This document shows positions 3,320-39,797 of a DNA stretch of 64,000 bases, piece by piece (the stretch's first letter is position 1; every line of letters starts with the position of its first letter). The translations under genes were made by a program, and so were the position numbers. Origin of the DNA: Candidatus Woesebacteria bacterium RIFCSPLOWO2_01_FULL_39_23 (GTDB lineage: Bacteria; Patescibacteriota; Microgenomatia; UBA8517); assembly GCA_001793095.1 (NCBI GenBank), contig MGHG01000009.1, positions 15,450 to 79,449 on the forward strand, written 5' to 3'. The notes under the pieces were generated by a model that was given only the letters and a program-made list of their open reading frames with translations, was not told the DNA's origin and did no database searches.

Positions 3320-3781
3320 TTACGCTCTTAGCCACCACAAAGCAGTTAAAATCGTAATTGTTTGCGTCAATAATCCCCAAGCTGGAGTGGTGTCCACCTG
3401 CAGGCTCTTTTGAAAGCCGATCCATTTTTTAATGAGATTATTTTTCCAATTTAAGAAAAAATATGGTGCTTCCACCAGGTCAGGTAAAACAGCGAAAAAT
3501 GATGCACCGATAATTGTAAGAGCTTGCGTAGCATTAGGGAGCGACCAGGAGGCGATAGTTAACCCGGATATTAATGCTATAAAGGAATCTAGTAAGACCA
3601 ATCTGAAAGATTGTGAGGTTACTTTACCGAATTTTACGGTTTCGACATTTAGGTGAGGGTTCCAATGGGGTACCTTTTCCAGTACGAAGTGGCTAATAAA
3701 TGCTAACGGGATTGCTAGGTAAGGATTGCCTACCTTTGAGGCGATTACAGCACCTACAATAACATGTGGCGTTTCTAACAC
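3320..3781 (-). CDS. Hypothetical membrane protein
   Basis: 153 aa hydrophobic ORF with no recognisable family motif. Confidence 0.35.
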   Translation of the reverse strand: MLETPHVIVGAVIASKVGNPYLAIPLAFISHFVLEKVPHWNPHLNVETVKFGKVTSQSFRLVLLDSFIALISGLTIASWSLPNATQALTIIGASFFAVLPDLVEAPYFFLNWKNNLIKKWIGFQKSLQVDTTPAWGLLTQTITILTALWWLRA

Positions 3782-3872
3782 AATGTATAATCATATACCT
3801 TTTCGTCAACGGTAGGCAAACCTGGTATCAGTAAAGTTTGGCCTTCTTGAATCTGGTATAATAATCCTTTGA

Positions 3873-4496
3873 TTGGGGAAACCGTTTGGCATGTTAATTA
3901 ATGTTCTTTCCATAGCTATTAATTTATTCGGGGTGGTGCTTGCCTTTTTCTTTTTTTGGAGGAGACTGAAAGAAGACTATATTCCGGATCAGATTTTTAC
4001 ACTTGCATTTTGGGTTTTATTTACTTTCCTAGCTAGTTTAGCGCTAGCTTTACTTTTTGTGCATACACTTGCATTCTGGTTACCGCTTGTTACGTCTTTA
4101 ACGGTGTTGATATATTTAAGCAAACGTTCAGGAATGCATTTTTTTGAGGTCTTGGAAGCGGGAATATTATCTTTTCTGGCTTGGTTTTTCATATTTTCCT
4201 TGAGTTTACTTATAGCTAACAGAAGTTCGCAGGTATTTAGCCTGATTGGCATTAATTTAATTTCGCTTACTCTTTTTTTTCTGGTTGACGCGCATTATAA
4301 GAAGATTACATGGTACCGATCGGGTAGGGCAGGGTTTACGGGCATGTTTGTTGTCGGTCTTTATTTTCTGGTTAGATCAGGGGTTGCACTACTTTCTCCG
4401 AATATGTTAATCTTCATGACAGAATACGATGTTTTTATTTCAGGTATAATATCGTTTACAGCTTTTTTAACAATATTTAACTTAGCAAAAGCATGA
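3873..4496 (+). CDS. Hypothetical polytopic membrane protein
   Basis: 207 aa with about six predicted TM helices by eye. No catalytic motif recognised. Confidence 0.45.
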   Translation: MGKPFGMLINVLSIAINLFGVVLAFFFFWRRLKEDYIPDQIFTLAFWVLFTFLASLALALLFVHTLAFWLPLVTSLTVLIYLSKRSGMHFFEVLEAGILSFLAWFFIFSLSLLIANRSSQVFSLIGINLISLTLFFLVDAHYKKITWYRSGRAGFTGMFVVGLYFLVRSGVALLSPNMLIFMTEYDVFISGIISFTAFLTIFNLAKA

Positions 4497-4971: not shown

Positions 4972-5763
4972 ATGGAACCTAAAGTAATATTTGAGGATGA
5001 GTACATTCTTGTAATAGATAAACCGTCGGGGTGGGTAGTGAATGACGCAGACACCACCAAAAATATTATTACTGTTCAAGGCTGGCTAGCGAAAAATTGT
5101 AAATATGAACTAGCTCAAGACAGCGTTTATAGGAGTGGAATAGTTCATAGGTTGGATAAAGAGACGAGCGGGGTACTCATTATTGCTAAAACAAAAGACT
5201 TGTTTACTAATTTACAGGCACAATTTAAGAATAGGCAAATTAATAAAAGTTATATAGCACTTGTACACGGCATTGTTGATCCGCCTGCCGGCGGAGAAGG
5301 GGAGATAAATATAGCTGTCGGGAGATTACCTTGGAATAGACGTAGATTCGGAGTACTTCCGGGAGGTAGGGAAGCAATAACACGCTATCGCGTAAATTCC
5401 AATTACCAATTCCTCTCCGAGCCGGAGAGCTCTCTTTCCGAGTCGGAGATTCTTCCAAGTCGGAGACCGAGCCGGAGGCTAAAATCCAATGAGAAATATA
5501 CACTTCTTGAGCTTTATCCTAAAACCGGAAGAACTCACCAACTAAGAATTCATCTTAAATATCTAGGACACCCGATTGTGTCTGATGGTTTTTATGCTGG
5601 CAGAAAAACATCCAGAGAGGACCTTAAATGGTGTAACAGGATGTTTTTACATGCTCAGAAAATACAATTTTCTCATCCTATTAACGCGAAGCCAATAGAA
5701 ATCGAATCTCCGATTCCAGCCGATTTAGTAGAAGCTCTTAAACTTCTTAGTGAAATAACTTAG
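4972..5763 (+). CDS. RluA-family pseudouridine synthase carrying an in-frame repeat insertion
   Basis: 263 aa. HRLDKETSGVLIIAKT catalytic-Asp motif and GRTHQLRIH motif. About 30 extra residues (SEPESSLSESEILPSRRPSRRLKS) are encoded by a palindromic repeat array at 5413-5478. Confidence 0.85.
   Translation: MEPKVIFEDEYILVIDKPSGWVVNDADTTKNIITVQGWLAKNCKYELAQDSVYRSGIVHRLDKETSGVLIIAKTKDLFTNLQAQFKNRQINKSYIALVHGIVDPPAGGEGEINIAVGRLPWNRRRFGVLPGGREAITRYRVNSNYQFLSEPESSLSESEILPSRRPSRRLKSNEKYTLLELYPKTGRTHQLRIHLKYLGHPIVSDGFYAGRKTSREDLKWCNRMFLHAQKIQFSHPINAKPIEIESPIPADLVEALKLLSEIT
5413..5478 (+). repeat. Tandem palindromic repeat array (units around CTCCGAG[C/T]CGGAG) inserted in-frame in rluA
   Basis: ctctccgagccggag / ttccgagtcggag / ccaagtcggag / accgagccggag. 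Each unit is an interrupted palindrome CTCCG-N3-CGGAG. Related arrays occur at 27881-27951 and 36505-36545. Confidence 0.6.
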
Positions 5764-5824: not shown

Positions 5825-7495
5825 ATGAGTTTTACAGAAATATCGGTTATTTTTTTTACGGCTTCAATATTTGCAATATTGGCTAAAACTATTAAACAGC
5901 CCCTTTTGATTGGTTATATATTTGCTGGATTGCTTTTGGGGGCATTGGGACTTTCGGGAAACATCCACTCTTTTGAATCATTAAGTCAGCTGGGAATTGC
6001 TTTACTGCTGTTTCTTTTAGGTTTGGAAATGAATCTTTCTGAGGTCCACTTAATCGGAAAAGTTGCTTTTATTACAGGAGTAACTCAGATATTGGTTACG
6101 ACATTTTTTGGTTTTATTTTGAGTACGTTATTTGGATTTGATCGGTTGCCCTCGCTTTATATCGCGGCGGCACTTTCGTTTTCTTCGACAATTATCGTTA
6201 TAAAACTTTTGTCAGAAAAGAAGGATCTGAATAGTTTGTACGGAAAAATTTCTATCGGGTTTCTTCTGGTTCAGGACCTTTTTGCAATTCTTATCCTGAT
6301 ATTTTTGTCTGGCCTCAAGGCAGGTACAAATCCGGATTTTATGAATTTTGCCACTTTGTTTTTAAGGGCCATTGTTCTTTTGGTTTTGGTTTGGATTCTC
6401 GCCAAAAAAATTTTTCCTATTTTCATCGAAAAATATGTCGCCGGCTCAGGTGAGCTTCTGTTCGTTACTAGTATCGCCTGGGCATTGGGTTTTGCTGCTT
6501 TTGTCGCGGGTCCCATGGGATTTTCTGTCGAGATAGGAGGTTTTCTGGCAGGCCTGTCGTTATCGACTCTACCCGAACACTATCAGATAGCTTCGAAAAC
6601 AAAACCTTTGCGTGATTTTTTTCTAATAATCTTTTTCCTGCTTCTTGGATCAAAATTGGTTATATCGAGTGCATCTTTATTGTTAATGCCAACTGCTTTA
6701 GTTTTGTCGTTTTATGTTTTGGTGTCTCACACGGTAATACTGTTTGTGATATTGGGTTTTTTAGGCTTTAGAAAAAGAACTTCATTTTTGGTAGGTTTAA
6801 CGGTCGCACAGATATCGGAATTTTCGATAATATTAGTTGCTATAGGATTATCTTTGGGTCATATTACGGGACCAATAGTTTCTTTAATTACGATGGTAGG
6901 CATAATTACGATGACGATATCCACCTATCTGATATTGGGATCGGAAAATTTATACGAGAGATTTAAACATAAGTTATCTATATTTGAACGCAAGTTTCCG
7001 AAAGAGCTCTCAATTCCTATGCACTTCGAACTCGAAAATCACATAGTTCTTGTGGGCTGCGATAGGACGGGTAAATCAATATTGTCTTATCTGGTCAGAA
7101 AAAATTTAAAGATCGTTGTCATTGATTTTAACCCGAGTGTTTATTCGAAGCTTTGTGAGCAAAAAATACCGGTGATTTTGGGTGATGTTAATGATTCAGA
7201 CGTAGCAGATTTTGCATCAATTCGTGAAGCGGGATTGGTTATTTCCACAATAGGGAACTTTAATGACAATATCAGGCTTTTGGCCGAGCTTGATAGTCAA
7301 AAGCAAACGGTAGTTATTGTTGCTTCGACAAGATCTGAAGCACTGCGGTTATACGAGCGGGGAGCAAGTTATGTTATAGTACCCGAATTTTTGGCAGGGG
7401 AACATTTAAAGCATCTGTTAATTCACTTTAAAGGTTTCTATGCCAAATTTAAGAAAATAGGCCGGCGGCAACATGAGAAATTAATTAATGGATAG
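5825..7495 (+). CDS. Cation:proton antiporter (CPA/Kef-type) with C-terminal TrkA-N/RCK domain
   Basis: 556 aa. About 12 TM helices are followed by a Rossmann-like VLVGCDRTGKSI segment typical of RCK/TrkA-N. Confidence 0.75.
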   Translation: MSFTEISVIFFTASIFAILAKTIKQPLLIGYIFAGLLLGALGLSGNIHSFESLSQLGIALLLFLLGLEMNLSEVHLIGKVAFITGVTQILVTTFFGFILSTLFGFDRLPSLYIAAALSFSSTIIVIKLLSEKKDLNSLYGKISIGFLLVQDLFAILILIFLSGLKAGTNPDFMNFATLFLRAIVLLVLVWILAKKIFPIFIEKYVAGSGELLFVTSIAWALGFAAFVAGPMGFSVEIGGFLAGLSLSTLPEHYQIASKTKPLRDFFLIIFFLLLGSKLVISSASLLLMPTALVLSFYVLVSHTVILFVILGFLGFRKRTSFLVGLTVAQISEFSIILVAIGLSLGHITGPIVSLITMVGIITMTISTYLILGSENLYERFKHKLSIFERKFPKELSIPMHFELENHIVLVGCDRTGKSILSYLVRKNLKIVVIDFNPSVYSKLCEQKIPVILGDVNDSDVADFASIREAGLVISTIGNFNDNIRLLAELDSQKQTVVIVASTRSEALRLYERGASYVIVPEFLAGEHLKHLLIHFKGFYAKFKKIGRRQHEKLING

Positions 7496-9239: not shown

Positions 9240-9264
9240 TTGTCAAGAGGTTTTGGTGTATAAT
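9240..9264 (+). promoter_or_regulatory. Possible promoter (-10 TGTATAAT) for yebC
   Basis: gtgTATAAT at 9256-9264. The -35 is poor (ttgtca lies only 13 nt upstream). This is the divergent intergenic region. Confidence 0.3.
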
Positions 9265-9390
9265 ATCAGAGAACCTGAGACTCGGAAAACTCGGAGTACC
9301 GGAAAATCAGATAACCAGATATTCAAATCTTCTGACTTTCTGACTGTCCGATAATCTCAACTTCCGAGGATTTCGATTCTCTGTGATATT
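9263..9390. repeat. MITE-like intergenic element, about 128 bp, terminal inverted repeats ATATCAGAGAAYC
   Basis: atatcagagaacc at 9263-9275 pairs with gattctctgtgatat at 9376-9390. Internal ACTCGGA repeats. Related copies at about 20620-20730 and 23500-23597. Confidence 0.45.
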
Positions 9391-20558: not shown

Positions 20559-20619
20559 TAAGTTGTATTGTATATTAGTAAATAATTATATGCAAACATG
20601 GTTTTATCAGCTTTAGCCA

Positions 20620-20730
20620 AAAGATCGGACAACTCGGACTACTCGGATGACGGAAGTCCGAATACTCGGACTGTCTGAAAATCGGATGGTCTGAGTTTTC
20701 AGAGTGATCTGATTCTCAGGTGAATTAGAC
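20620..20730. repeat. Degenerate copy of the ACTCGGA-containing intergenic element
   Basis: Three ACTCGGA units plus tccgaat. The end gattctcaggtg resembles the TIR of the 9263-9390 element. Confidence 0.3.
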
Positions 20731-23470: not shown

Positions 23471-23499
23471 TACGGAAAGTATACAATATATATAGGTAC

Positions 23500-23597
23500 C
23501 CGGAGAACCTGAATACTCGGGTGACTCGGATGGTCAGAGAATCAAGTGGTCCGAAATTCCGAAGTCGGATTATTCAGAGTTTTCTGGTTCTCTGATG
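23500..23597. repeat. MITE-like intergenic element, about 100 bp, TIR (C)AGAGAACC
   Basis: ggagaacctgaatactcgggtgactcgga ... ggttctctgatg. The 5' 30 bp align with the 9263 element. Confidence 0.4.
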
Positions 23598-23673
23598 AGC
23601 GGTGCAGTTAAACAGTAATTGTTATACGCTTAAAGAGCTTGTAGTTACTGCTTCCATTGTGTAATAATGGTTT

Positions 23674-25413
23674 ATGGCTGCCCGAAATATTTTTCCGCAA
23701 GACGTAAGCTCGACAAACCAGAAAACTTTAGCAGATATTCTTGTGGCAAAAGGCGTCTTGGATAGCGAGCATGCGAGGCAAGTAAAATTCAGTGAAATTC
23801 AAACAGGTAAAAGTCAGGAAGATATTTTATCCGAGCAAAATGTTGTAAGTGAGGCAGATTTAGTCCGAGCTAAAGCCGAACTTTATAATGTAACTTATGT
23901 TGATTTGGATACGCAGCCTGCTTCACCCGAAGCTCTCTCATCCCTCCCCCAGCAGGTGGCTGAGCGATTCGGTGTTTTTCCAATTACAGTTGATCTGACC
24001 AATAAAGTAATAGTTATAGCAATGAAGGACCCCCTCGACCTGGCTGCGATCAGTTTTGTGGAACAAAAAACGGGTCTTCGGGTAGATCCGCGTGCGGCGG
24101 AACCGACGAAAATAGCTAACTATATAGCCAGCGGATATTCAACGTCGCTTGCTAAGGAGGTAACGGAGGCTCTTAAGGAAGTTGCTCCGGAAAAAAAACG
24201 TGTTCAAATACTTGATATGGGAGTCGGCGGTGTAATCAGAGAAGAAAGAGTTGCCGAGGTTGTTAATCACATCCTCTCCTTTGCCGTCAAAGCGCGTGCC
24301 AGCGATATTCATATTGAACCTCAGGAAAAGATGACGAGAGTCCGTTACAGAATTGACGGTATCTTACAAGAGAAGCTGACTACACCCAAAGAGCTGCATG
24401 AGGCTCTTATTTCGAGAATTAAGATTCTCTCGGGAATGAAAATTGACGAAAAGCGGGTTCCTCAAGACGGTAGGTTTAATTTTTCGACGGGAGACGAAGA
24501 TGTAGATCTTCGTATCTCAACTCTTCCGACGGCGTGGGGTGAAAAGGTCGTAATGCGACTTCTCAAGAAAACCGGCGGTGTACCGAGTTTGTCTGAACTT
24601 GGCCTCAGGGGTAGGGCTTTAAAAAACCTTGGAGATGCCATCCTCAGGCCTCACGGTATAATTTTGATTTGCGGACCTACCGGATCAGGTAAAACGACAA
24701 CCTTGTATTCGATAATCCAAAATATCTCAACACCTAAAGTTAATATTGTTACCTTGGAGGATCCGATCGAATATAAAATTGCCGGGGTTAATCAGGTGCA
24801 GGTAAATCCTGTTGCCGGTTTGACTTTTGCATCCGGTCTTCGAGCTTTTCTAAGACAGGATCCGAATGTCATATTGGTCGGAGAGATTCGCGACCAAGAG
24901 ACGGCTGACTTAGCAGTTCAAGCAGCACTAACGGGTCATTTAGTGTTTTCTACCTTGCATACCAATGATGCTTCCGGAGCGCTCCCGAGACTATTAGATA
25001 TGGGTGCTGAACCGTATTTACTGGCATCGTCTATGACCGCTGTCGTTGCACAAAGGGTTGTCAGGAAGATCCATGCGGATTGCAAAGAAGGCTATTCTCC
25101 CGATGCAAAGATTGTAGGAGAGATAAAAGAGGGATTGGGTCCGCTTTGGAAGCCCGAAGGCAATGTTTCCTTTTATAAAGGTAAAGGCGATCCTGAATGC
25201 GGTAATACGGGCTATTACGGTAGAGTCGGAATATTTGAGGTCTTGCCTGTTACCGAAAAAGTGAGTAGGCTTATACTAGAAAAATCACCTGCATCGGAGA
25301 TGGATGCTGTCGCGAAAGAGGAAGGCATGATTTCGATGAAGCAGGATGGGTTTCTTAAAGTAATCGAGGGCATAACAACGATCGAGGAAGTCTTAAGGGT
25401 AGCACAAGAGTGA
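23674..25413 (+). CDS. pilB: Type IV pilus assembly ATPase PilB/GspE
   Basis: 579 aa. N-terminal GSPII_E_N-like domain. Walker A GPTGSGKTTTLYS, Asp/His boxes and a tetra-Cys motif. Confidence 0.9.
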   Translation: MAARNIFPQDVSSTNQKTLADILVAKGVLDSEHARQVKFSEIQTGKSQEDILSEQNVVSEADLVRAKAELYNVTYVDLDTQPASPEALSSLPQQVAERFGVFPITVDLTNKVIVIAMKDPLDLAAISFVEQKTGLRVDPRAAEPTKIANYIASGYSTSLAKEVTEALKEVAPEKKRVQILDMGVGGVIREERVAEVVNHILSFAVKARASDIHIEPQEKMTRVRYRIDGILQEKLTTPKELHEALISRIKILSGMKIDEKRVPQDGRFNFSTGDEDVDLRISTLPTAWGEKVVMRLLKKTGGVPSLSELGLRGRALKNLGDAILRPHGIILICGPTGSGKTTTLYSIIQNISTPKVNIVTLEDPIEYKIAGVNQVQVNPVAGLTFASGLRAFLRQDPNVILVGEIRDQETADLAVQAALTGHLVFSTLHTNDASGALPRLLDMGAEPYLLASSMTAVVAQRVVRKIHADCKEGYSPDAKIVGEIKEGLGPLWKPEGNVSFYKGKGDPECGNTGYYGRVGIFEVLPVTEKVSRLILEKSPASEMDAVAKEEGMISMKQDGFLKVIEGITTIEEVLRVAQE

Positions 25414-25496
25414 TGGCAACTTAGAACTCAAATGTTAAAACTAACAACTTTTTTCTGAAATTTTAAGCTTTAAGTTATAAGTTTTGAGCTAAAAGC

Positions 25497-26558
25497 ATGG
25501 CTATTAAAGATTTATTAGAACTTACAGTCCAAAGAGGTGCATCTGATTTACATATCATTGCCGGCCTCCCGCCCTATTTACGCGTTCAAGGCAATCTTCT
25601 TGCGGTCAAAAGTGAGGCCATCATGACTCAAGATATCATTGAAAAGTACCTTAAGGAAATCTTAAACCCTGAAAACTTAGAGCGCTTTGGTGTCAACCGT
25701 GAGCTTGACTTTTCACTTTCATTCAGCGCTAAGTCAAGATTCAGGGTAAATGCTTACACCCAAAGAGGTTCTTTTGCGATATCTTTCAGAAATATCCCGA
25801 TTGAAATCCCTCCGATTGATGAACTGGGTCTTCCGAAAATACTCCATGCATTTACTACGCTCCGGCAGGGTTTTGTCTTAGTTACCGGACCAACCGGTCA
25901 TGGTAAATCAACCACAATTGCCTCAATGCTTAATGAGATAAATGAGACCCGATCCTGTCATATTATTACAATTGAAGACCCGATTGAATTTTTGTTCAAA
26001 CCCAGAAATTCAATAGTCTCGCAACGTGAGATGGGTGGTGACACTCATTCCTGGCAAATTGCCCTAAGAAGTGTGCTTAGGGAGGATCCTGATGTTGTCC
26101 TTGTCGGAGAAATGCGGGATTACGAAACAATTTCAGCTGCGCTAACGGTTGCAGAAACCGGGCATTTGGTTTTTGCAACGCTTCACACCAACTCAGCCGC
26201 GCAAACAATCGATAGAATTGTTGATGTTTTTCCCGATGAACAGCAAAAGCAGGTCAGACTCCAACTGTCAAATGTCGTTGAAGCCGTATTTTCTATGCGT
26301 TTAATTCCGACGGTATCCGGAGACCGAGCAGTTGCTTACGAAGTTATGCTGGGAACCTCGGCTATTAAGAGCTCTATTCGTGAGGGTAAAACGCACCAGA
26401 TTGACAATATTTTACAAACTTCGACAGAGGTAGGTATGAATACTATAGAGATGTCTCTAGCTTCACTTATCAAAAGCGGGAGAATTACCCTTGAAACCGC
26501 ACAGTCTTTTTCACTTCGACCGGAAGAGCTTTCAAGACTTATGCGATCAGGGAGATAA
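25497..26558 (+). CDS. pilT: Twitching-motility retraction ATPase PilT
   Basis: 353 aa. GPTGHGKSTT Walker A. PilT-like N-terminus ASDLHI. Confidence 0.9.
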   Translation: MAIKDLLELTVQRGASDLHIIAGLPPYLRVQGNLLAVKSEAIMTQDIIEKYLKEILNPENLERFGVNRELDFSLSFSAKSRFRVNAYTQRGSFAISFRNIPIEIPPIDELGLPKILHAFTTLRQGFVLVTGPTGHGKSTTIASMLNEINETRSCHIITIEDPIEFLFKPRNSIVSQREMGGDTHSWQIALRSVLREDPDVVLVGEMRDYETISAALTVAETGHLVFATLHTNSAAQTIDRIVDVFPDEQQKQVRLQLSNVVEAVFSMRLIPTVSGDRAVAYEVMLGTSAIKSSIREGKTHQIDNILQTSTEVGMNTIEMSLASLIKSGRITLETAQSFSLRPEELSRLMRSGR

Positions 26559-26588
26559 GCATGTCAATTAACGGCTCTCTCGTTTTTT

Positions 26589-27794
26589 ATGAAGCGTTTT
26601 AAGTATAAAGCCAGAAATAAGGATGGTGGTGTAGTTGTCGGAGAGGTAGAAGCGGTAAATGATATTACGGCTGCGAAGCTTCTAAGACAGAAAGGTTTAA
26701 CAATTATCTCCATTAATCCAAAGCGTGAACTTGGTTTTAATTTCCTTAAAAAATATAAAGAAAAGGTAACAAGTAATGATATTACAAACTTTACCCGGCA
26801 GTTTGCGACGATGATCAATGCCGGCCTTCCTGTAACTGAATCACTTCTGATACTGCGAAACCAATCAAAAGGCAGATTCCAGGCTATAATTGGTGAGATC
26901 CTGTCAGATGTCGAAGGGGGTCATCCCCTATCGAGTGCCCTAGCTAAGCATCCCCGCGCATTTAGTAAAACTTATATTGCCTTGGTTAAATCGGGCGAAG
27001 TTGGTGGCGTGCTGGATAGAGTTTTAGCCAGACTTGCAGATAACTTGGAAAGGCAGCAGGAATTTAAAGGTAAAGTAAAAAGCGCGATGATTTATCCGGT
27101 GATAATTGTTTTCGGGATGAGCGCAGTTGCATTTATCATGCTTACATTCGTAGTTCCGAAATTAACCGAGCTGTATGATCAGTTTGATGCTGATTTACCG
27201 ATAACTACTAAAGTGTTAATTGCACTTTCAACCGTGATGAGTAAATTCTGGCCTTTTGTACTTATTGGATTTGCAGTTCTTCTTTACCTCTTCAGGCTAT
27301 ATCACGCTACTAAAAAAGGTAAGAAGAAAATTGATCAGCTTATTTTAAAAGTTCCGCTTGTAGGGGACCTTACCAAAAAAGTAATTCTGACGGATTTAAC
27401 ACGGACATTGTCTCTGATGGTCGGCTCCGGTGTTTCGATTCTTGAAAGTTTAAGCATATCAAGCGAAGTTGTAGGAAACACGGTTATGTCGGAATCCCTG
27501 GATGATATATCGACGATGGTTGAAAAGGGTTTTCCTGTCGCCTACTCTTTTGCAAAACACACTGAAGCTTTTCCTCCTATTTTAGCCCAAATGATTTCTG
27601 TGGGCGAGGAAACGGGTAAAGTTGACGAAGTTTTGGAAAAAGTAAGCCACGTTTTCGAAGTTGAAAGTGATGCTAAACTTAAAGCCATTACAGCGGCTAT
27701 TGAACCGCTTATACTAATAGTGCTTGGGGTTGGAGTAGCCTTTTTGGTGATATCAATAATCATGCCTATTTATAATCTGACAACACAACTTTAG
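26589..27794 (+). CDS. pilC: Type IV pilus platform protein PilC/GspF
   Basis: 401 aa. Two GspF repeats, three TM helices, conserved ALVKSGEVGG-type segments. Confidence 0.9.
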   Translation: MKRFKYKARNKDGGVVVGEVEAVNDITAAKLLRQKGLTIISINPKRELGFNFLKKYKEKVTSNDITNFTRQFATMINAGLPVTESLLILRNQSKGRFQAIIGEILSDVEGGHPLSSALAKHPRAFSKTYIALVKSGEVGGVLDRVLARLADNLERQQEFKGKVKSAMIYPVIIVFGMSAVAFIMLTFVVPKLTELYDQFDADLPITTKVLIALSTVMSKFWPFVLIGFAVLLYLFRLYHATKKGKKKIDQLILKVPLVGDLTKKVILTDLTRTLSLMVGSGVSILESLSISSEVVGNTVMSESLDDISTMVEKGFPVAYSFAKHTEAFPPILAQMISVGEETGKVDEVLEKVSHVFEVESDAKLKAITAAIEPLILIVLGVGVAFLVISIIMPIYNLTTQL

Positions 27795-27880
27795 GTAGGT
27801 ATGCTACTTGACATCAAGCCCAAATTTATAACATACTGGATATAGAAATAAATTTCTAAGCGCAAAAAACTTAGAAGAAT

Positions 27881-27951
27881 GGAGGCCTCCGGCCTTTGAG
27901 GGCCTCTCCCCGAGCTGGAGAGCTCTCTGAGCTGGAAGCTGGCCCGGAGGG
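27881..27951. repeat. Palindromic repeat array (GGAGGCCTCC; GGCC-tttgag-GGCC; CCGAGCTGGAG x2) in the pilC-pilA spacer
   Basis: Same CCGAG-N-GGAG family as 5413-5478 and 36505-36545. It lies immediately 5' of the pilA RBS. Confidence 0.5.
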
Positions 27952-27969
27952 AGGTGAAACTTAAAATAA

Positions 27970-28527
27970 ATGACTGCCTATTTTAAAAAGTTTATGGATG
28001 ATAGTCGTAGAGGTTTCACTCTTATTGAGCTTCTTATAGTTATGGCAATTCTTGGAGTGTTAGCTGTTGTTGTTCTTGTGGCTATTAACCCTATTCAACA
28101 GCTGGCAAGAACCCGAGATACAGGTAGGAAATCAGGTGTAACTCAGTTAGGCCATGCCTTGGATGCGTACTACACAGCCAGAAATGGAGAATATGTGGCG
28201 GAAGGTACTACGTGGATCACTGCGCTGTCAACGTCCGGTGAACTGTCTACAATTCCAAGTTTAATTCAGTACGGAATTTCCGGTATAAGTGGTTGTTCTA
28301 ACGCCGGAGCCAATCCGCATAATAGCTGGTGTTATGATTTGGATACAACCGGGGGAACAAACGGACCGGCTGTGGTATATGCTGAACTCGAATCGAACGT
28401 TGAGAGGTCGAAATGCGGAAGTGGTGTGAGGGCGTGGTTTGTATACTCTTCTGCTGATGGTAGGGGCGGATTAATGTGTGATGCAGTACCGACACCTGGT
28501 ACTCAAAACTGGAATACTACACAATAA
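27970..28527 (+). CDS. pilA: Major type IV pilin (prepilin, class III signal)
   Basis: RG|FTLIELLIVMAILGVLAVVV has the N-methylation/cleavage motif with Glu+5. Two C-terminal Cys residues could form a disulfide loop. Confidence 0.8.
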   Translation: MTAYFKKFMDDSRRGFTLIELLIVMAILGVLAVVVLVAINPIQQLARTRDTGRKSGVTQLGHALDAYYTARNGEYVAEGTTWITALSTSGELSTIPSLIQYGISGISGCSNAGANPHNSWCYDLDTTGGTNGPAVVYAELESNVERSKCGSGVRAWFVYSSADGRGGLMCDAVPTPGTQNWNTTQ

Positions 28528-33843: not shown

Positions 33844-34449
33844 ATGAAGAAGATAAAAAATATTAAGTTATATGGCTTCACCCTTATAGAACTTCTAATT
33901 GTACTTGCAATTTTGGGGGTTTTAGCCGTTGTAGTACTCATCGCCATTAATCCAACCCAACAGTTGGCCAAAGGCAGAGATACTGGTAGAAAGTCATCAG
34001 TTACACAATTGGGGCGGGAGTTAGCTTCTTATTTTACTGCCCGTGCAATTTTTCCAAGAAACAACAATTGCACTAATATGACTAGTAACTGGATGGATTG
34101 TTTAGTTGCGGCGGGATCTTTAAGAGAAATTGTCGGTCCGATAAACTATAGTGCTAACGCAAGATGTAAAACCGCTGGAGGCGGTGGATCGTCGCTTTGT
34201 CCTTGTACAACAGGTACGGGTGCAGGTTTACAGTGGGGAGTGCAAAATGACTGGTGTTATGTAGTGCAATCGGCGTTAGGTGATGCTGCGGTTGTATACG
34301 CACCTTTAGAATCAGATACCCTTACAAGATCATGTCCTGCCGGACAATGGGCTTATTTTATTTGGTCTAGTGCTGATGCGCGCGCAGGAACAATCTGCAC
34401 GGCTGCAGGTTCGAGACCGGCTCCCGGAACACATACATTTATAGATTAA
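33844..34449 (+). CDS. Major type IV pilin paralog
   Basis: YG|FTLIELLIVLAILGVLAVVVLIAINPTQQLAKGRDTGRKS. About 60 N-terminal residues are nearly identical to the 27970 pilin. The C-terminal region differs. Confidence 0.8.
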   Translation: MKKIKNIKLYGFTLIELLIVLAILGVLAVVVLIAINPTQQLAKGRDTGRKSSVTQLGRELASYFTARAIFPRNNNCTNMTSNWMDCLVAAGSLREIVGPINYSANARCKTAGGGGSSLCPCTTGTGAGLQWGVQNDWCYVVQSALGDAAVVYAPLESDTLTRSCPAGQWAYFIWSSADARAGTICTAAGSRPAPGTHTFID

Positions 34450-34479
34450 GAAAGGGGAATATTTTCTGTCCAACCGTAT

Positions 34480-35289
34480 TTGGTGTTAATAATCATTTTA
34501 TATTTACTGGTTTCTGTACTGGGCTTGGTAGCGGGTTCTTTTATTAGTGCTTTGTCTTATCGTCTGCCTCTTGGAATAAAAATTACTAAGGGGAGGTCGT
34601 TTTGTGATAATTGTGGGACGAAAATTGCCTGGTATGATAATATACCTGTCTTTTCTTACTTTTTATTAGATGGGAAGTGTCGATGTTGTAAAAAAGAGAT
34701 TTCACTACGCTACAGTTTAATTGAATTTTCTACACTTCTCGTCTTTTTATCCATTGCCTATTTCTATGTGAGTTGTGTTTCTACTCTTGGTAGTGCGGTT
34801 TGCCAGTGGCGAAATCTTTTGGGATCCGGAGCACTCCCCTACCTTCTAATGCTAGCGGCGGGTTTTGTAACACTTGCAGTCATTGATTTGGAACATCAGA
34901 TGATTCCGGATAAAATCACGCTATCTTTATTTGCGATAACGTCATTGATCCTTATTTTTTTAAACCCCGATTATGCTTATCAAAGTTTTCTGGCAGGATT
35001 CCTAGCAGCACTTTTTCTTCTTCTAATCCATCTTGCAACCAAAGGTAAAGGTATGGGGCTGGGAGACGTTAAACTGGCGCTATTGGGCGGTGTGATATTG
35101 GGGTGGAGATCGACAGTCCCCTGGTTAATGCTTAGTTTTATCATAGGTGCGGTAGTAGGATTAATTTTGATTTTATTTGGGAAAGCAAAGTTTGGTAAAC
35201 ACATTCCGTTCGGACCGTTTTTGGTTGTATCTTTTTTTCTGGCATTGGTATTTGGAGACAGAATGTTTAGTAGCATCCTTCGATTATGA
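34480..35289 (+). CDS. pilD: Prepilin peptidase / N-methyltransferase PilD (A24 family)
   Basis: N-terminal CxxC...CxxC zinc region (CDNCGTKI...CRCCKKEI), the two catalytic Asp segments, and polytopic topology. Confidence 0.85.
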   Translation: MVLIIILYLLVSVLGLVAGSFISALSYRLPLGIKITKGRSFCDNCGTKIAWYDNIPVFSYFLLDGKCRCCKKEISLRYSLIEFSTLLVFLSIAYFYVSCVSTLGSAVCQWRNLLGSGALPYLLMLAAGFVTLAVIDLEHQMIPDKITLSLFAITSLILIFLNPDYAYQSFLAGFLAALFLLLIHLATKGKGMGLGDVKLALLGGVILGWRSTVPWLMLSFIIGAVVGLILILFGKAKFGKHIPFGPFLVVSFFLALVFGDRMFSSILRL

Positions 35290-35885
35290 AGCCTTTTACC
35301 AAAAGTGAAATTAAAGGTGTATCGATCATCTTACTGGTTATATTCAGCGTTACTGCTATTAACCTAAAAGTGGCTCTTAGGCGTGCGCGGGATGCACAAA
35401 GGAGAGATGATGTGGGTGCGCTGGATTCGGCGTTAAATAAGTATCAGGTTGATTTTGGTTTTTTCCCCCCTTCGACAACAGATGGTAAAATTCTAGCCTG
35501 TAAAGGCCCGAATTATTCGCCCTTGCCGGAAAATATGGAAAAAGAAGAAAGGATGAAAGCCTTTTTAGCGATGCTTAAGGGTTGCGTTTGGGGTAAAGAT
35601 GCTTTTAGGGATGTAAACGACGACTCCTATCCCCCGTATATAAAAATACTGCCGGCTGATCCGAAATCAGATGAAGGTATAAGCTATTTTTATATTTCGA
35701 ACGGCAACCGTTTTCAGATATATACTTATTTGGAGGGAGGAGATGGCGAAATCGGCTTTCGACAGGGAATTGTAGACCGTCAACTCCCCTGCGGTAACCA
35801 GATTTGCAACTTTGGACGATCCTATGGCGCGACCCCACTTGAAAAATCCATCGAAGAGTACGAGAATGATATATTGGGGAAATAA
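35286..35885 (+). CDS. Atypical GspG-like pseudopilin lacking a canonical G|FTLxE cleavage motif
   Basis: Hydrophobic N-helix followed by RRARDAQRRDD (pseudopilin-like). ILPADPKSDEGISYFY resembles the GspG ADPWG region. No Glu+5. Confidence 0.45.
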   Translation: MKPFTKSEIKGVSIILLVIFSVTAINLKVALRRARDAQRRDDVGALDSALNKYQVDFGFFPPSTTDGKILACKGPNYSPLPENMEKEERMKAFLAMLKGCVWGKDAFRDVNDDSYPPYIKILPADPKSDEGISYFYISNGNRFQIYTYLEGGDGEIGFRQGIVDRQLPCGNQICNFGRSYGATPLEKSIEEYENDILGK

Positions 35886-35924
35886 GCCTTTAACTTATAA
35901 CTAACTACTTATAACTTAATAAAC

Positions 35925-36482
35925 ATGCCTACTTTTAAAAAATCTTTAGTCATCAGTCCCAAGTCGCCAGTTAATTTGGGCTTTACACTTATCGAGATGT
36001 TGATAGTCATGGCGATGATAGCTCTTTTGGCAACATTATTTATTACAGGTTTTCCGGCTTCGCAGCGCAGGGCGCGGGATGCCCAAAGACGGAGTGATCT
36101 GAATAATTACAACGCACTTTTACGCGAATATGGAAGCCGGCACGAAGGTTTATACCCGGGTGCAAACGGCAGTGGTATTGAAATGAAATGCGGCGGAATG
36201 GGGTGTATTGGACTTTATTTATGCAACCTTTTAGGTATAAGTAGCACTGCATGTCACGTTGATCGGTATGATAGGCAGACTGAGTGTTTCAATAATGAGT
36301 TGTGCATTTATTATTATCAGGGAAGTAGTTGCGACGACGGCAGTGCGTGTGCTGAAAGTTTTGTCTTAAGAGCAAGGCTTGAGAGCGAAGCGGGGTGGGT
36401 GTACTACTGCTCAAATGGCTCAAATGGAATTGCCGCAGAGGGAACAACCTGGGATACTTTAGCCGGTTACTGTCCGATATAG
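35925..36482 (+). CDS. Prepilin-type minor pilin / pseudopilin
   Basis: LG|FTLIEMLIVMAMIALLATL plus ARDAQRRSDL. Confidence 0.75.
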   Translation: MPTFKKSLVISPKSPVNLGFTLIEMLIVMAMIALLATLFITGFPASQRRARDAQRRSDLNNYNALLREYGSRHEGLYPGANGSGIEMKCGGMGCIGLYLCNLLGISSTACHVDRYDRQTECFNNELCIYYYQGSSCDDGSACAESFVLRARLESEAGWVYYCSNGSNGIAAEGTTWDTLAGYCPI

Positions 36483-36485
36483 TGT

Positions 36486-37061
36486 ATGGTAAAAGTCATG
36501 AGTCTCAAGTCTCTCCGAGCAGGAGGTCTCTCCGAGCCGGAGGCAAAAGTCAAAAGTTATTCTGGTTTTACTTTGGTCGAGATGCTGGTGGTCCTGGCAA
36601 TAATAGTTGTCATTTTATCTATGTCGGCATTTGGTATAGGGAGTTCTATGGAGTCAGCAAGAGATTCAAGAAGAAAAAACGATTTAAGGCAATATCACGA
36701 TCTATTAAAAGAATATGCCGGCAGGCATCAGGGTTTCTATCCGCAACGTACTGCAGTTGTTGCCGCATCCGATCTTAATAACGAGACAAACGACAGTTTG
36801 TGTAACGACTTGGGGTTAGATGCTGCGGATACAACAACTGATTGTCCGGGCGATCCAAGAGATGGTTCAACCAAAACGGTCGGAGCTTATACCTATACAC
36901 TTCGATATACATACATAACAACAGGAGGAACATGTACGGGCGGATCAGCCTGTGCTAGTGCTTATGTTTTGAGGGCAGTGTTAGAATCTTCGGACGTGTC
37001 GTGGAGTATAGATCAAGACGGCATTGTCCGGGAAAGCATATTGGGAATAGCAGGCGATTAA
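36486..37061 (+). CDS. Prepilin-type minor pilin whose 26-aa leader peptide is encoded by a palindromic repeat array
   Basis: SG|FTLVEMLVVLAIIVVIL. The leader MVKVMSLKSLRAGGLSEPEAKVKSY contains the CTCTCCGAGC(A/C)GGAGG x2 repeat at 36505-36545. There is no alternative downstream start. Confidence 0.7.
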   Translation: MVKVMSLKSLRAGGLSEPEAKVKSYSGFTLVEMLVVLAIIVVILSMSAFGIGSSMESARDSRRKNDLRQYHDLLKEYAGRHQGFYPQRTAVVAASDLNNETNDSLCNDLGLDAADTTTDCPGDPRDGSTKTVGAYTYTLRYTYITTGGTCTGGSACASAYVLRAVLESSDVSWSIDQDGIVRESILGIAGD

Positions 37062-37064
37062 TAT

Positions 37065-37568
37065 ATGTTGAGTAGAAATTTAGGTTTCACATTGGTCGAG
37101 ATGCTTGTCGTTTTGGCGATTATCGCAATTATCGCTGCCGTCTCGGGAATCGGTATGCGCAATTCATTCGAATCAGCACGTGATGCCCAAAGGAAGTCTG
37201 ACTTAAGACAGTACCAGACAGCGCTTGAGCGCCAGGCAAATAATAATAACGGTTTTTATGAATCGAGAACAACCGCTGTCGACGCTCCTGGCGCAGCAGG
37301 TACTTTATGTGCTGATTTAGTCCTGACTAGCTGTCCTGTTGATCCAAGAAGATGTGCTGACACCACATGTACTGCTTTGAAAGACAATACTTGGATACAA
37401 TATACATATATTAGTGACGGCACCGGTTCCGGGAATCCGACCGGCAGGAATTATGTATTGTGGGCAAGACTTGAGAATGTTACAACGACTACCTATTGGG
37501 AAATATGCTCTAATGGAAAATCGGGTACGGTAACTACGGCTCCCACTAATTCAACCTGCGACCTTTAA
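37065..37568 (+). CDS. Prepilin-type minor pilin / pseudopilin
   Basis: LG|FTLVEMLVVLAIIAIIAAV plus ARDAQRKSDL. Confidence 0.75.
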   Translation: MLSRNLGFTLVEMLVVLAIIAIIAAVSGIGMRNSFESARDAQRKSDLRQYQTALERQANNNNGFYESRTTAVDAPGAAGTLCADLVLTSCPVDPRRCADTTCTALKDNTWIQYTYISDGTGSGNPTGRNYVLWARLENVTTTTYWEICSNGKSGTVTTAPTNSTCDL

Positions 37569-37570
37569 AT

Positions 37571-38194
37571 ATGATTAATAAACAACTCATGCCTAAGAGG
37601 CATAAGTTTTCTCGCCAAAGCTCGAAGAGTTTGTTCACTGCTTCGCTTCAGCACAGGGCTAAAAGCCCTGAGTTTTCGCGAAGTATGAATAAATTGCACC
37701 ATGCCTTTACTCTTGTTGAACTTCTTGTAGTAATAGCAATAATTGTGATGCTTTTGGCCGCTTCCCTGATTGGTATACAGGGGTCAAAAGAAACAACAAG
37801 AGATGTGAGAAGGAAGGCTGATTTGGAAGCAATAAGAGAAGCGCTTGAGCTGTATAAAGCAGATAATAACGTTTATCCTTATTCTAATCCTGAAAACGCG
37901 TGTGATTCAAGCGAGGGATCATGCGGCACTGCTTGTACATCCGGAACAAATTCCTGCGGAGGCGTTGCCTGGGCAGCACCGATGACTAACCTTCAACCCA
38001 ATTTTATTGCTGATCTACCGGAAGACTCGATTAATGATGACACACATTTTTACTACTACGAACCCGTTTGTAATCAAACTTCGACTGTATGTGGCGTTTC
38101 GAAGACTTGTACGGGAATTAATAATTGCTGTGCGTACGAGCTGGGGACGCAGCTCGAAGCCGATTCGACATGGTATCGGGTCTGCAGTCCTTAG
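37571..38194 (+). CDS. Prepilin-type minor pilin (probable start at Met 37685, MNKLHHA|FTLVELL)
   Basis: FTLVELLVVIAIIVML with Glu+5. Ala at position -1 instead of Gly. Confidence 0.7.
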   Translation: MINKQLMPKRHKFSRQSSKSLFTASLQHRAKSPEFSRSMNKLHHAFTLVELLVVIAIIVMLLAASLIGIQGSKETTRDVRRKADLEAIREALELYKADNNVYPYSNPENACDSSEGSCGTACTSGTNSCGGVAWAAPMTNLQPNFIADLPEDSINDDTHFYYYEPVCNQTSTVCGVSKTCTGINNCCAYELGTQLEADSTWYRVCSP

Positions 38195-38203
38195 TCCACA
38201 AAA

Positions 38204-38740
38204 ATGATACATTTTCTTCGCAAGGGTTATTCACTAGTCGAACTTTTGGTCGTTATTTCGATAATTATGGTCGTTTTTACGATCGTTAATGCCAATTATC
38301 GTGCTTATACACGAAAAAGGGCACTTGACGGTGTAGCTGAAGGCATAAAAGCCGATATAAGACTTGCCCAAGAATATGCTATTTCCGGCAAGAAACCTGC
38401 TGGTTCGTGCGATGCCTTGCAGGGAATTTATTTTAGAAGAATGGCAGGTTCGTATTATAGAATAGAAGCATATTGTAAAGTGGGTGGTGTAAATAGAACT
38501 TGTACTACCTCCCCCGGATATCCGGATTTATGTTATAAAGATGCAGTATATTTACCTTCTGGCTATACTATGGGAAATATCGTACCAGTCACACCTCTGA
38601 ATAATATTATATATTTCAAACTTGGCGGGAGGGGAAATTATTTAGACCCAGCAAGTTCGCCTTACTCCATTACTATTACGCAACCTTATACTTCGGCGAC
38701 CAAGGCAATCTATTTTACGGCGGGAGGAGAAGTATATTGA
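38204..38740 (+). CDS. Prepilin-type minor pilin
   Basis: KG|YSLVELLVVISIIMVVF. Confidence 0.7.
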   Translation: MIHFLRKGYSLVELLVVISIIMVVFTIVNANYRAYTRKRALDGVAEGIKADIRLAQEYAISGKKPAGSCDALQGIYFRRMAGSYYRIEAYCKVGGVNRTCTTSPGYPDLCYKDAVYLPSGYTMGNIVPVTPLNNIIYFKLGGRGNYLDPASSPYSITITQPYTSATKAIYFTAGGEVY

Positions 38741-39279
38741 TGAAAACTAATAACTTAAAACTTATAACTAATAACTTTAATTTGGGTTTACCCCGTACAA
38801 ACGCTCCCCGATACCCGATCGGGGTAAGTTCTGTGCGGGGACAGTCGATGGTTGAAGTTGTGTTTGCCATCGGAATAGCAGCCATTATATTGACTACTGT
38901 TGTTTCCGTTTCAGTATCTTCAGTTCGAAATTCGACTTTTTCAAAATTAAACTCTCAGGCCAATAGATATGCTCAGGATCTGAGCGAATGGTTACGCCGC
39001 CAAAGAGATCTTGATTGGGCGACGTTTAAAGCTAAAGCGAATACAACGGGCATTACCTACTGTTTTAAAACACCAAACCCGACTGCCTGGCCGGCTTCGG
39101 GAGTTTGCGGTAGTTCAGATTTTATGACAGGGACGAAGTTTATAAGACAAGCAAAGTTAAGTCTACCAAGCACAGATCCGTTGGTATTATCCGAAGTAAC
39201 TGTATCCTGGACTGACAGTCAAGGAACACATTCCGTAGTTTCAATAACGAAATTGGTGGACTGGAGGGCGCAACCGTGA
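38737..39279 (+). CDS. Prepilin-type minor pilin with a long leader (PilV/PilW-like)
   Basis: RG|QSMVEVVFAIGIAAIILTT with Glu+5. 35-aa leader. Confidence 0.55.
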   Translation: MMKTNNLKLITNNFNLGLPRTNAPRYPIGVSSVRGQSMVEVVFAIGIAAIILTTVVSVSVSSVRNSTFSKLNSQANRYAQDLSEWLRRQRDLDWATFKAKANTTGITYCFKTPNPTAWPASGVCGSSDFMTGTKFIRQAKLSLPSTDPLVLSEVTVSWTDSQGTHSVVSITKLVDWRAQP

Positions 39280-39797
39280 GGCAGAAGGCATATTCGTTAG
39301 TTGAAATATTAATTGTGATAGCAGTTTTTGCGGTTTTATCTATCGTAAGTACAATGGTCATTCAAACTGTATTGAAAAATGCAAACAAAACTCAATCTCA
39401 AATTAATGTTCGGGAAAACCTTGGCTATGTCATGTCTGTAATTGAACGGCAATTACAGTTATCCAAAGGTATAACGGTATGCCCAATTATCGACCCTTAT
39501 AAAGTAGATTTTACTTCAGAAACGGGAGTTGCAGCTTCATTTGTTTGTGAAAATATAGGGCTAACCGATCCGCAGGTTGCATCATATTCGGGTGTAACTA
39601 CCCCCGCTACTAAATATCGACTTACATCCAGTAGCGTGATTATTGATTACTGTAATTTTAGCTGCACTCACACGTTAGGGCAAAGAGATCTTGTTAAATT
39701 TTCAATTTCCGGCCACCAATTAAATAATTTTGAAGCTGAAGGTGCAACAGTTGTCATGCAAACCGAAATTCTTCTCCGCAACTATTCGAAGTATTAA
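39276..39797 (+). CDS. Prepilin-type minor pilin
   Basis: KA|YSLVEILIVIAVFAVLSIV. Confidence 0.65.
   Translation: MRQKAYSLVEILIVIAVFAVLSIVSTMVIQTVLKNANKTQSQINVRENLGYVMSVIERQLQLSKGITVCPIIDPYKVDFTSETGVAASFVCENIGLTDPQVASYSGVTTPATKYRLTSSSVIIDYCNFSCTHTLGQRDLVKFSISGHQLNNFEAEGATVVMQTEILLRNYSKY

Follow-up and report, generated by a model that had tools for sequence, protein, structure and literature searches.

A 33-nucleotide hairpin repeat, probably a non-autonomous mobile element, lies in frame in Woesebacteria genes and recurs in distant bacteria

A 64,000-nt window of the genome of Candidatus Woesebacteria bacterium RIFCSPLOWO2_01_FULL_39_23 (contig MGHG01000009.1) contains three arrays of a short palindromic repeat, two of them inside genes. 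We consider it probable (roughly 65%) that these arrays are a very small, non-autonomous mobile hairpin repeat, similar in kind to REPs and Rickettsia palindromic elements (RPEs), that its host genes tolerate in frame. The repeat is dispersed over unrelated sites and genomes, is found in filled and empty site pairs that differ by 33 nt without target duplication, is read in three different frames, and is located in loops.

The repeat is a 17-nt hairpin paired into a dimer

The repeat unit is a 17-nt hairpin, CTCTCCG-AGC-CGGAGAG, whose stem has 7 bp and whose loop is the trinucleotide AGC or AGT. Units are paired head to tail to give a 33/34-nt dimer with the consensus CTCTCCGAGCYGGAGRN CTCTCCGAGCCGGARG(C). 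An earlier note, made from the sequence alone, had placed arrays in rluA, in the pilC-pilA spacer and in a prepilin leader, and all three are present; the variable 12-21-bp units that it described are instead this fixed hairpin, and the element is the dimer. The exact extents are 5413-5479 (site 1), 27881-27954 (site 2, with the dimer at 27906-27939) and 36511-36544 (site 3). All three arrays are on the + strand, which is the strand of positive GC skew, and the GC content of the window is about 39%.

The motif is far more frequent than chance predicts, contrary to the outcome that the earlier note had named as a refutation. The core CCGAGYCGGAG has four exact matches in the window, all on the + strand, against 0.03 expected, and the 17-mer CTCTCCGAGCCGGAGAG with up to 3 mismatches has five + strand matches, at sites 1-3, against 0.05 expected. 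An unsupervised repeat search recovers sites 1-3 as a single 23-nt family (at 5413, 27906 and 36511; 83-91% identity). Related 21-nt units (CTCC plus a 5-bp hairpin) are not found in the window beyond chance (5 matches, 3.9 in controls). No further copies were found in 17 kb of extra flank, giving three arrays in 81 kb of genome.

Fold prediction gives the dimer as a nested hairpin, in which the adjacent arms of units are able to pair with either neighbour. The folding energies of the arrays, whose sequence is low-complexity and GC-rich, show no clear gain over shuffles (z -0.4 to -2.5). An Rfam 15 covariance-model scan of the window and six loci at gathering score matched only a tRNA. Four dimer variants are all free of stop codons in each of their six frames.

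The same window sequence was assembled from dozens of samples; site 2 is identical in 7 assemblies and the RluA protein in 70 blocks of the collection. No presence/absence polymorphism of the arrays was detected among the sampled populations. We read the arrays in this genome, which are few, mutually diverged and fixed in the population, as old relics rather than as an active burst.

Site 1 extends a surface loop of an RluA-family enzyme

Site 1 lies within a pseudouridine synthase gene and comprises the following features.

4972-5763, + strand: host gene 1, an RluA/RluD-family pseudouridine synthase of 263 aa (Pfam PF00849 on the identical product; PDB matches to RluD, RluC and RluA; AlphaFold model).
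5413-5433, + strand: 5′ part of the outer dimer, unit CTCTCCGAGCCGGAGAG plus CTCT (from the sequence).
5434-5466, + strand: inner 33-nt dimer CTTTCCGAGTCGGAGAT TCTTCCAAGTCGGAGA (from the sequence), which we infer to be nested in the outer dimer.
5467-5479, + strand: 3′ part of the outer dimer, CCGAGCCGGAGGC (from the sequence; exact core match).

When 5413-5433 is joined to 5467-5479 the product is CTCTCCGAGCCGGAGAGCTCTCCGAGCCGGAGGC, which has one mismatch to the copy in metagenome locus L038 and two to that in L079. On its sequence, site 1 would be a consensus pair, CTCTCCGAGCCGGAGAGCTCT followed by CCGAGCCGGAGGC, that has been broken after CTCT by a diverged 33-nt pair at 5434-5466. The loops are AGT in both inner units and AGC in both outer units, and the 33 nt of the inner dimer equal the insertion size in gatB and in the composite repeats described below.

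The insert in rluA measures 66-67 nt and 22 aa. It keeps the frame, as the earlier note had claimed, and is shorter than the 25-30 or so linker residues given there. These 22 residues are missing in the closest species-level relatives and in all 119 other homologues among the matches listed, 4 of which have unrelated inserts at the same loop; there are no RluA homologues between 62% and 100% identity. The syntenic rluA loci of three related Woesebacteria have other sequences at the same point, one of them a different GC-rich hairpin; the loop is therefore an insertion hotspot, and this lineage acquired the present array. Repeat modules are absent from 42 kb of these three genomes.

Two structural comparisons agree with the earlier expectation that the rluA copy occupies a loop. 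The alignment to RluD (1PRZ) breaks at query residues 147-175, which correspond to the insert. The AlphaFold model has a mean pLDDT of 89.9, and within it the insert (pLDDT 54-61) forms the tip of a predicted β-hairpin whose strands are residues 136-147 and 175-183.

The tip of the RluA β-hairpin (window 5395-5495; loci L149 and L151 in relatives) has inserts that differ between lineages and are bracketed by ATTTCCAAT-like copies. The L151 gene has a 15-nt direct repeat, ATTTCCAATTTCCAA, and the L149 gene has other GC-rich hairpins, GCCTGCGCCGAGGCTTCGGCGGGCAGGC. A Levybacteria rluA (L002, 2270-2380) is interrupted elsewhere in the gene by another kind of palindromic element, which is AT-rich (…AATCCGAAATACGAAA…TTTCGAATTTCGAGATTCGAATTTCG…), keeps the frame and adds about 24 aa (SEIRNKSEIQNSNDQNGFEFRDSNFEFS).

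Site 3 lengthens a prepilin leader peptide

Site 3 falls in the part of a prepilin-like gene that encodes the leader.

36486-37061, + strand: host gene 2, a prepilin-like protein of 191 aa with a 27-aa leader before G/FTLVE (translation; weak N_methyl match on the identical product; 6221 homologues at E <= 0.001).
36511-36544, + strand: site 3 dimer CTCTCCGAGCAGGAGGT CTCTCCGAGCCGGAGGC, within the leader-peptide codons (sequence and 17-mer scan; Tandem Repeats Finder, period 17, 2.1 copies).

There is no start codon between the repeat and G/FTLVE, so the repeat is translated within the leader. The closest prepilin homologue among the matches listed (P0202, 56-61% identity) has a leader of 17 aa, about 10 aa shorter, and removal of 33 nt from site 3 keeps the frame and leaves a leader of 16 aa, against the 17 aa of P0202. 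In most of the 150 homologues listed of the 6221, the match begins within about the first 10 residues, implying that their leaders are short. The earlier note had taken the extra residues to be non-ancestral, and the orthologues that have none of them (the rluA relatives, the 119 listed RluA homologues and the P0202 leader) bear this out.

The type IV pilus locus of the window (23674-28527 and 33844-39797) encodes pilB, a pilT-like gene, pilC, a pilin, a prepilin peptidase and about nine pilin-like genes. The predicted leaders of the pilin-like genes of the window range from 6 to 44 residues, the 44-aa leader belonging to the ORF at 37571.

Site 2 lies in the pilin 5′ region and matches composites from other bacteria

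The third array is intergenic and is made up of a dimer enclosed by other hairpin units.

27808-27837, + strand: promoter-like site TTGACA-18-CATACT, upstream of site 2 (consensus scan, 10/12 matches; a prediction, which places site 2 in a predicted 5′ UTR).
27881-27905, + strand: left GC-rich hairpin units of site 2 (GGAGGCCTCC; GGCC-TTTGA-GGGCC-T), which align with GCCGCCGGCCCACGAGGGCCT of metagenome loci L058 and L132.
27906-27939, + strand: site 2 dimer CTCCCCGAGCTGGAGAG CTCTCTGAGCTGGAAGC, of a GAGCT/GGAAGC subfamily (about 50/55 positions match the L058 composite core).
27940-27954, + strand: site 2 right arm TGGCCCGGAGGGAGG (same arm in L035, L058, L064, L132 and the phage contig L154).
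27970-28527, + strand: pilin gene downstream of site 2, 185 aa, with a GFTLIE N terminus (translation; Pfam N_methyl PF07963 on the identical product).

The right arm closes a GGGCC/GGCCC hairpin around the dimer (GGGCC-T ... T-GGCCC). With two mismatches in each unit, site 2 is more diverged than the other sites and clearly homologous to them. It aligns with the composites of L035, L058, L064 and L132, and is about 91% identical over 55 nt to the Desulfobacterales-like composite of L058 (about 50/55 by hand count), a match that excludes convergence as its explanation.

Site 2 ends in GGAGG, 15 nt before the pilin ATG, and on its sequence may affect the stability or translation of the pilin mRNA. 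The repeats might therefore be kept for a function of their own, as RNA hairpins that stabilize or regulate an mRNA or supply a ribosome-binding site, with the coding copies as a by-product. Such a function would suit the position of site 2 between a promoter-like site and the pilin start, and also the copy in the phage contig, whose GGAGGGGG end is 12 nt from a start codon; REPs that lie 3′ of genes are moreover known to function as RNA elements (PMC3733652). Nevertheless, we think it fairly improbable that this is how the repeats arose. The copies in rluA, the leader peptide and gatB are not so placed, the Rfam scan gives no match, the folding z-scores are weak, and a role at one site leaves the dispersal of the repeat unexplained. 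If site 2 has an RNA function, this is more plausibly a secondary use than the origin of the repeat.

The predicted pilin 5′ UTR also has a 7-bp hairpin, TTCTAAG-N9-CTTAGAA, at 27853-27877, immediately 5′ of site 2.

The repeat recurs in distant bacteria and in a phage-like contig

To search for the family outside this genome, JGI metagenome contigs were scanned with the 22-nt degenerate pattern CTCYCCGAGYNGGAGRNCTCTC, which identified at least 115 loci. Among the loci listed, flank clustering gave 156 clusters from 192 flanks, corresponding to at least about 70 separate contexts and to many samples rather than one genome. Identical 33-mers occur in >50 unrelated contexts.

Most of the loci listed have a GC content of 41-52% and carry the pair CTCTCCGAGCTGGAGGA CTCTCCGAGCCGGAAGC. 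Further hairpin units enclose the pair in a nested arrangement; these consist of YCCCTCC and a 5-bp stem (GGGCC/GGCCC, GGGGC/GCCCC or GAGCC/GGCTC) and occur in both orientations. The 90%-identity clusters into which proteins of these contigs fall bear the names Desulfobacterales bacterium or Deltaproteobacteria bacterium CG_4_8_14_3. L079 is a second Woesebacterium with the repeat, its nearest GatB homologues being named Woesebacteria, and on two contigs of GC 0.7 (L039 and L114) the pair lies within riboflavin synthase. A phage-like IMG/VR contig (L154; 14.6 kb, GC 0.49) has a composite at 6780-6900, between a 756-aa gene and the next gene, with its GGAGGGGG end 12 nt from the ATG of the latter. 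The earlier proposal of a lineage-specific insertion thus holds for the inserts, which orthologues lack, and not for the family, which also occurs in the second Woesebacterium, in Desulfobacterales-like MAGs, in a 70% GC organism and in a phage contig.

A BLAST search with the 57-nt composite core gave no match in plasmid and phage collections, although the low-complexity filter may hide short ones. In viral contigs, the exact 17-mer gave 3 single-unit matches in coding sequence, which is the chance level. The repeat sequence was not found in the searched literature.

The Desulfobacterales-like locus L091 has composites of about 240 nt (1210-1520 and 1950-2200) bounded by ACCCCGTTAGAAAT … ATTTCTAACGGGGT, one of which adds 80 aa in frame to a pirin.

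Filled and empty sites differ by 33 nt

The gatB gene of the second Woesebacterium reads ...GTACA[CTCTCCGAGCCGGAGGCCTCTCCGAGCCGGAGG]CGATCA..., whereas orthologues without the insert read ...ATACA/TCATAC... and ...AAACA/CCATAC... (L152 and L153; 77% and 70% protein identity, respectively). The length difference between L079 and these orthologues is exactly 33 nt, or 11 aa (SPSRRPLRAGG). Alignment of the filled and empty alleles reveals no duplicated flank and only a 1-nt ambiguity, and comparison with Thermotoga GatB (3AL0_B) places the insertion point in a variable loop. The same step is seen in the composites, in which GCCCCT-CT-GGGGC (3 copies) and GCCCCT + 35 nt + GGGGC (53 copies) differ by 33 nt. 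Genic inserts measure 33 nt in gatB, 33 nt in the prepilin gene and 66 nt in rluA.

A pyruvate dehydrogenase cluster with members of 367 and 357 aa was considered as a further filled/empty pair and rejected, because the proteins differ only in their start codons.

These data bear on the possibility that the arrays arose in place, by slippage or template switching at a fortuitous hairpin, with the likeness between sites reflecting convergence on a GC-rich palindrome. The arrays are tandem with a 17-nt period, arms that can pair with either neighbour favour slippage, and the rluA loop, a hotspot for indels, is flanked by direct repeats of ATTTCCAAT in the window, L149 and L151, all of which would suit an origin of this kind. 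However, it cannot yield either the roughly 91% identity that site 2 shows to the Desulfobacterales-like composites across 55 nt or the identical 33-mers in >50 unrelated contexts; the empty gatB sites contain no seed copy, and insert sizes step by 33 nt and not by 17 nt. We regard origin in place as improbable, and as already largely refuted by the site 2 alignment and the gatB empty sites.

The coding copies use three different frames of the same repeat strand: frame 0 in rluA (LSEPES), frame 2 in the prepilin gene (LRAGGLSEPE) and frame 1 in gatB of L079 (SPSRRPLRAGG). Copies occur in non-coding DNA as well, and the repeat acts at the level of DNA and not of protein. Among the 118 metagenome copies, 8 lie in ORFs that reach at least 100 codons on both sides, 8 more in ORFs that reach 60-99 codons, and about 102 outside long ORFs; in the window, two of the three arrays are in coding sequence. 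Real genes with composite inserts, as judged by Pfam, encode a pirin (insert between its two cupin domains), a CpsB/CapC phosphatase (in which the insert divides the profile match), an indolepyruvate-oxidoreductase-like protein and a radical SAM protein.

It is very unlikely that the inserted peptides (SEPES, SRRPSRR and LRAGG) were selected as flexible or charged protein linkers. Although the inserts are hydrophilic and lie in loops, three frames in three genes yield unrelated peptides, which already contradicts selection for a particular peptide, copies also occur in non-coding DNA, and the rluA insert has low model confidence and is missing in all homologues among the matches listed. Nor does an idealized translated 17-nt array, searched on both strands, match any protein family (nothing at E <= 10, the 11-aa matches being too short to score). 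GC-rich palindromes are hard to sequence, but assembly or sequencing artefacts can be dismissed almost completely given the identical sequence in independent NCBI, JGI, ENA and Logan assemblies made with different assemblers.

Candidate transposases and a possible route of insertion

We looked for transposases by ORF clustering and profile searches over 513 kb of module-bearing loci. Six ORFs belong to the IS200-like Y1 transposase family (Pfam PF01797, E 2e-10 to 1.7e-15), and their best NCBIfam family is the REP-associated tyrosine transposase (RAYT; E 1e-19 to 3e-23, with one ORF above the cut-off). Three of the six are within 200 nt of a module, which looks like an enrichment because RAYT genes usually number about one per genome (PMC5581495). 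The association may still be indirect, as modules may simply favour hairpin loops and REPs flank RAYT genes for reasons of their own. In L082 the RAYT-like gene (3740-4360 in gene orientation) is flanked by GTAG hairpins, GTAGGGTCGGCC… upstream and the inverted GTAGGGCAGGCCACTGTGCCTGCC downstream; this is the layout of a classical REPtron, and a CTCC-type composite sits inside the loop of the upstream hairpin. The window and its 17 kb of flank contain no transposase of any kind.

In L076 a RAYT-like gene is flanked by the terminal hairpins of L091-type composites.

No consistent target sequence was found. A T precedes the element in 7 of 9 contexts, and the left flanks (TACA, AAGT, ATTC, CCCT, GCCT, CAAT and TTCT) have only this frequent final T in common. 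Integration of the Cas1 spacer type, suggested by the 33-nt size, was rejected because a single sequence is seen at all sites, with no duplication of a repeat.

One mechanism, which we hold only tentatively, is that a non-autonomous hairpin element is moved as single-stranded DNA by a Y1 HUH transposase acting in trans. The element would enter as single-stranded hairpin DNA through a RAYT or an IS200/IS605-type Y1 HUH transposase, and the Woesebacteria would have received it by horizontal transfer.

On the reading of a mobile hairpin repeat, which we hold as probable, the element is added in steps of 33 nt. Because this length is divisible by three and none of the six frames contains a stop, a coding copy adds 11 harmless residues, and lasts only where the protein tolerates it, as at the RluA β-hairpin tip, in a cleaved leader peptide or in the GatB variable loop. 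Copies also enter the loops of other hairpins, including earlier copies of the element itself, which produces nested composites such as those at sites 1 and 2. Weighing against this reading are the lack of a transposase in the 81 kb, the small number of arrays there and their lack of polymorphism, the missing GTAG or CGTC tag, the possibly indirect link to RAYT genes, the failure to find a consistent target, the weak folding scores and the absence of modules from 42 kb of related Woesebacteria.

A broader and similarly doubtful reading is that the 33-nt dimer may be a mobile element of minimal size whose very construction keeps the frame, and that it has hairpin loops and copies of itself as targets, crosses phyla, is possibly carried by phages and repeatedly remodels the surface loops of housekeeping enzymes; the groups it would have crossed are Woesebacteria (candidate phyla radiation), Desulfobacterota and a high-GC lineage. 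If this is true, the copies in a reduced Woesebacteria genome without its own transposase are a record of DNA traffic from co-resident or host bacteria.

Comparison with known palindromic elements

The interpretation given in the earlier note is for the most part supported, and the comparison with REP/BIME elements and Rickettsia RPEs that it had drawn is apt. Like REPs, BIMEs and REPINs, the repeat is a short imperfect palindrome found single, dimeric and clustered, and both the 17-nt unit and the dimer are stem-loops in the sense of REPs, which are palindromes of about 20-40 nt. Some of its copies are inside ORFs, as has been reported for some REPs (PMC3733652). In other genomes, Y1_Tnp/RAYT-like genes are found in the vicinity of copies, and target duplication is absent. 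Described REP superfamilies, however, are marked by a conserved GTAG or CGTC tag at one end of the palindrome (PMC3733652). Neither tag occurs in any unit of sites 1-3 or in the consensus dimers, where the conserved ends are CTCTCC and GGAGG. The 33/34-nt dimer is head to tail, whereas REPs form inverted pairs with a spacer, and the same sequence is found across phyla, in contrast to the species- or genus-specific distribution that is usual for REP families. REPs are mostly extragenic, unlike two of the three copies in the window; the metagenome copies, about 102/118 of them extragenic, are REP-like in this respect. No RAYT gene lies within the 81 kb of this genome.

Rickettsia RPEs carry the CGTC tag, and their targets include a pseudouridine synthase gene (PMC3733652). 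The two families share palindromic repeats lying in frame in housekeeping genes whose protein tolerates them, and no transposase is known for RPEs. RPEs are about 100-150 bp in length, far longer than the present element. They also differ in being confined to Rickettsia, whereas the repeat described here is 33/34 nt long, has no CGTC and an unrelated sequence, occurs in several phyla and has a Woesebacterium as host.

Palindrome-associated elements derived from IS200/IS605 resemble the repeat in having terminal hairpins without inverted terminal repeats, in the lack of target duplication and in strand specificity. The repeat differs from them in that no fixed target tetranucleotide and no cognate TnpA were found for it and that it is far shorter than any described member. 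The mobile GC clusters and translational-bypass elements (byps) of yeast mitochondria are GC-rich hairpin modules scattered through an AT-rich genome, including its coding regions; these belong to eukaryotic organelles, and byps are skipped by the ribosome and need not keep the frame. The genic copies here, by contrast, are all in frame and stop-free, pointing to ordinary translation. MITEs are likewise small, non-autonomous, dispersed and sometimes in frame, but the repeat has no IS terminal inverted repeats and no target-site duplication (gatB), and its ends, CTCTCC and GGARG(C), are hairpin arms.

As intragenic REPs and an RPE in a pseudouridine synthase have already been described (PMC3733652), the phenomenon is not new in kind. 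What is distinctive is the 33-nt step, the stop-free design, the self-nesting and the sharing across phyla, including candidate-phyla-radiation bacteria. In-frame palindromic repeats, known from Rickettsia and some REP families, have been viewed as oddities bound to single lineages. In the present case, one 33-nt module occurs in a phage contig as well as in at least three groups of bacteria that are only distantly related, there are clean filled and empty alleles in an essential gene, and every insertion is frame-neutral by virtue of the module's size and sequence. If borne out, the module would be a simple and traceable source of loop insertions in conserved proteins and a marker of DNA exchange with candidate-phyla-radiation bacteria, whose mobile DNA is poorly known. 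Annotators should be aware that an unusual low-complexity segment of such a protein can represent repeat DNA.

Other features of the window

The window contains a tRNA gene at 1433-1517 (Rfam RF00005, 56 bits), between dnaB and a peptidase M29 gene. The ACTCGGA-containing elements, to which the earlier note had suggested a kinship of the repeat, turn out to be a separate family of about 110 nt with a 9-nt periodicity. Three homologous intergenic copies (9255-9385, 20600-20730 and 23490-23610; 69% column identity) sit upstream of yebC, between the H+-PPase gene and gyrB, and upstream of pilB. They are built on the 9-nt periodic pattern NNTC(G/A/T)GANN, the left half having TCGGA/TCAGA and the right half TCTGA/TCCGA.
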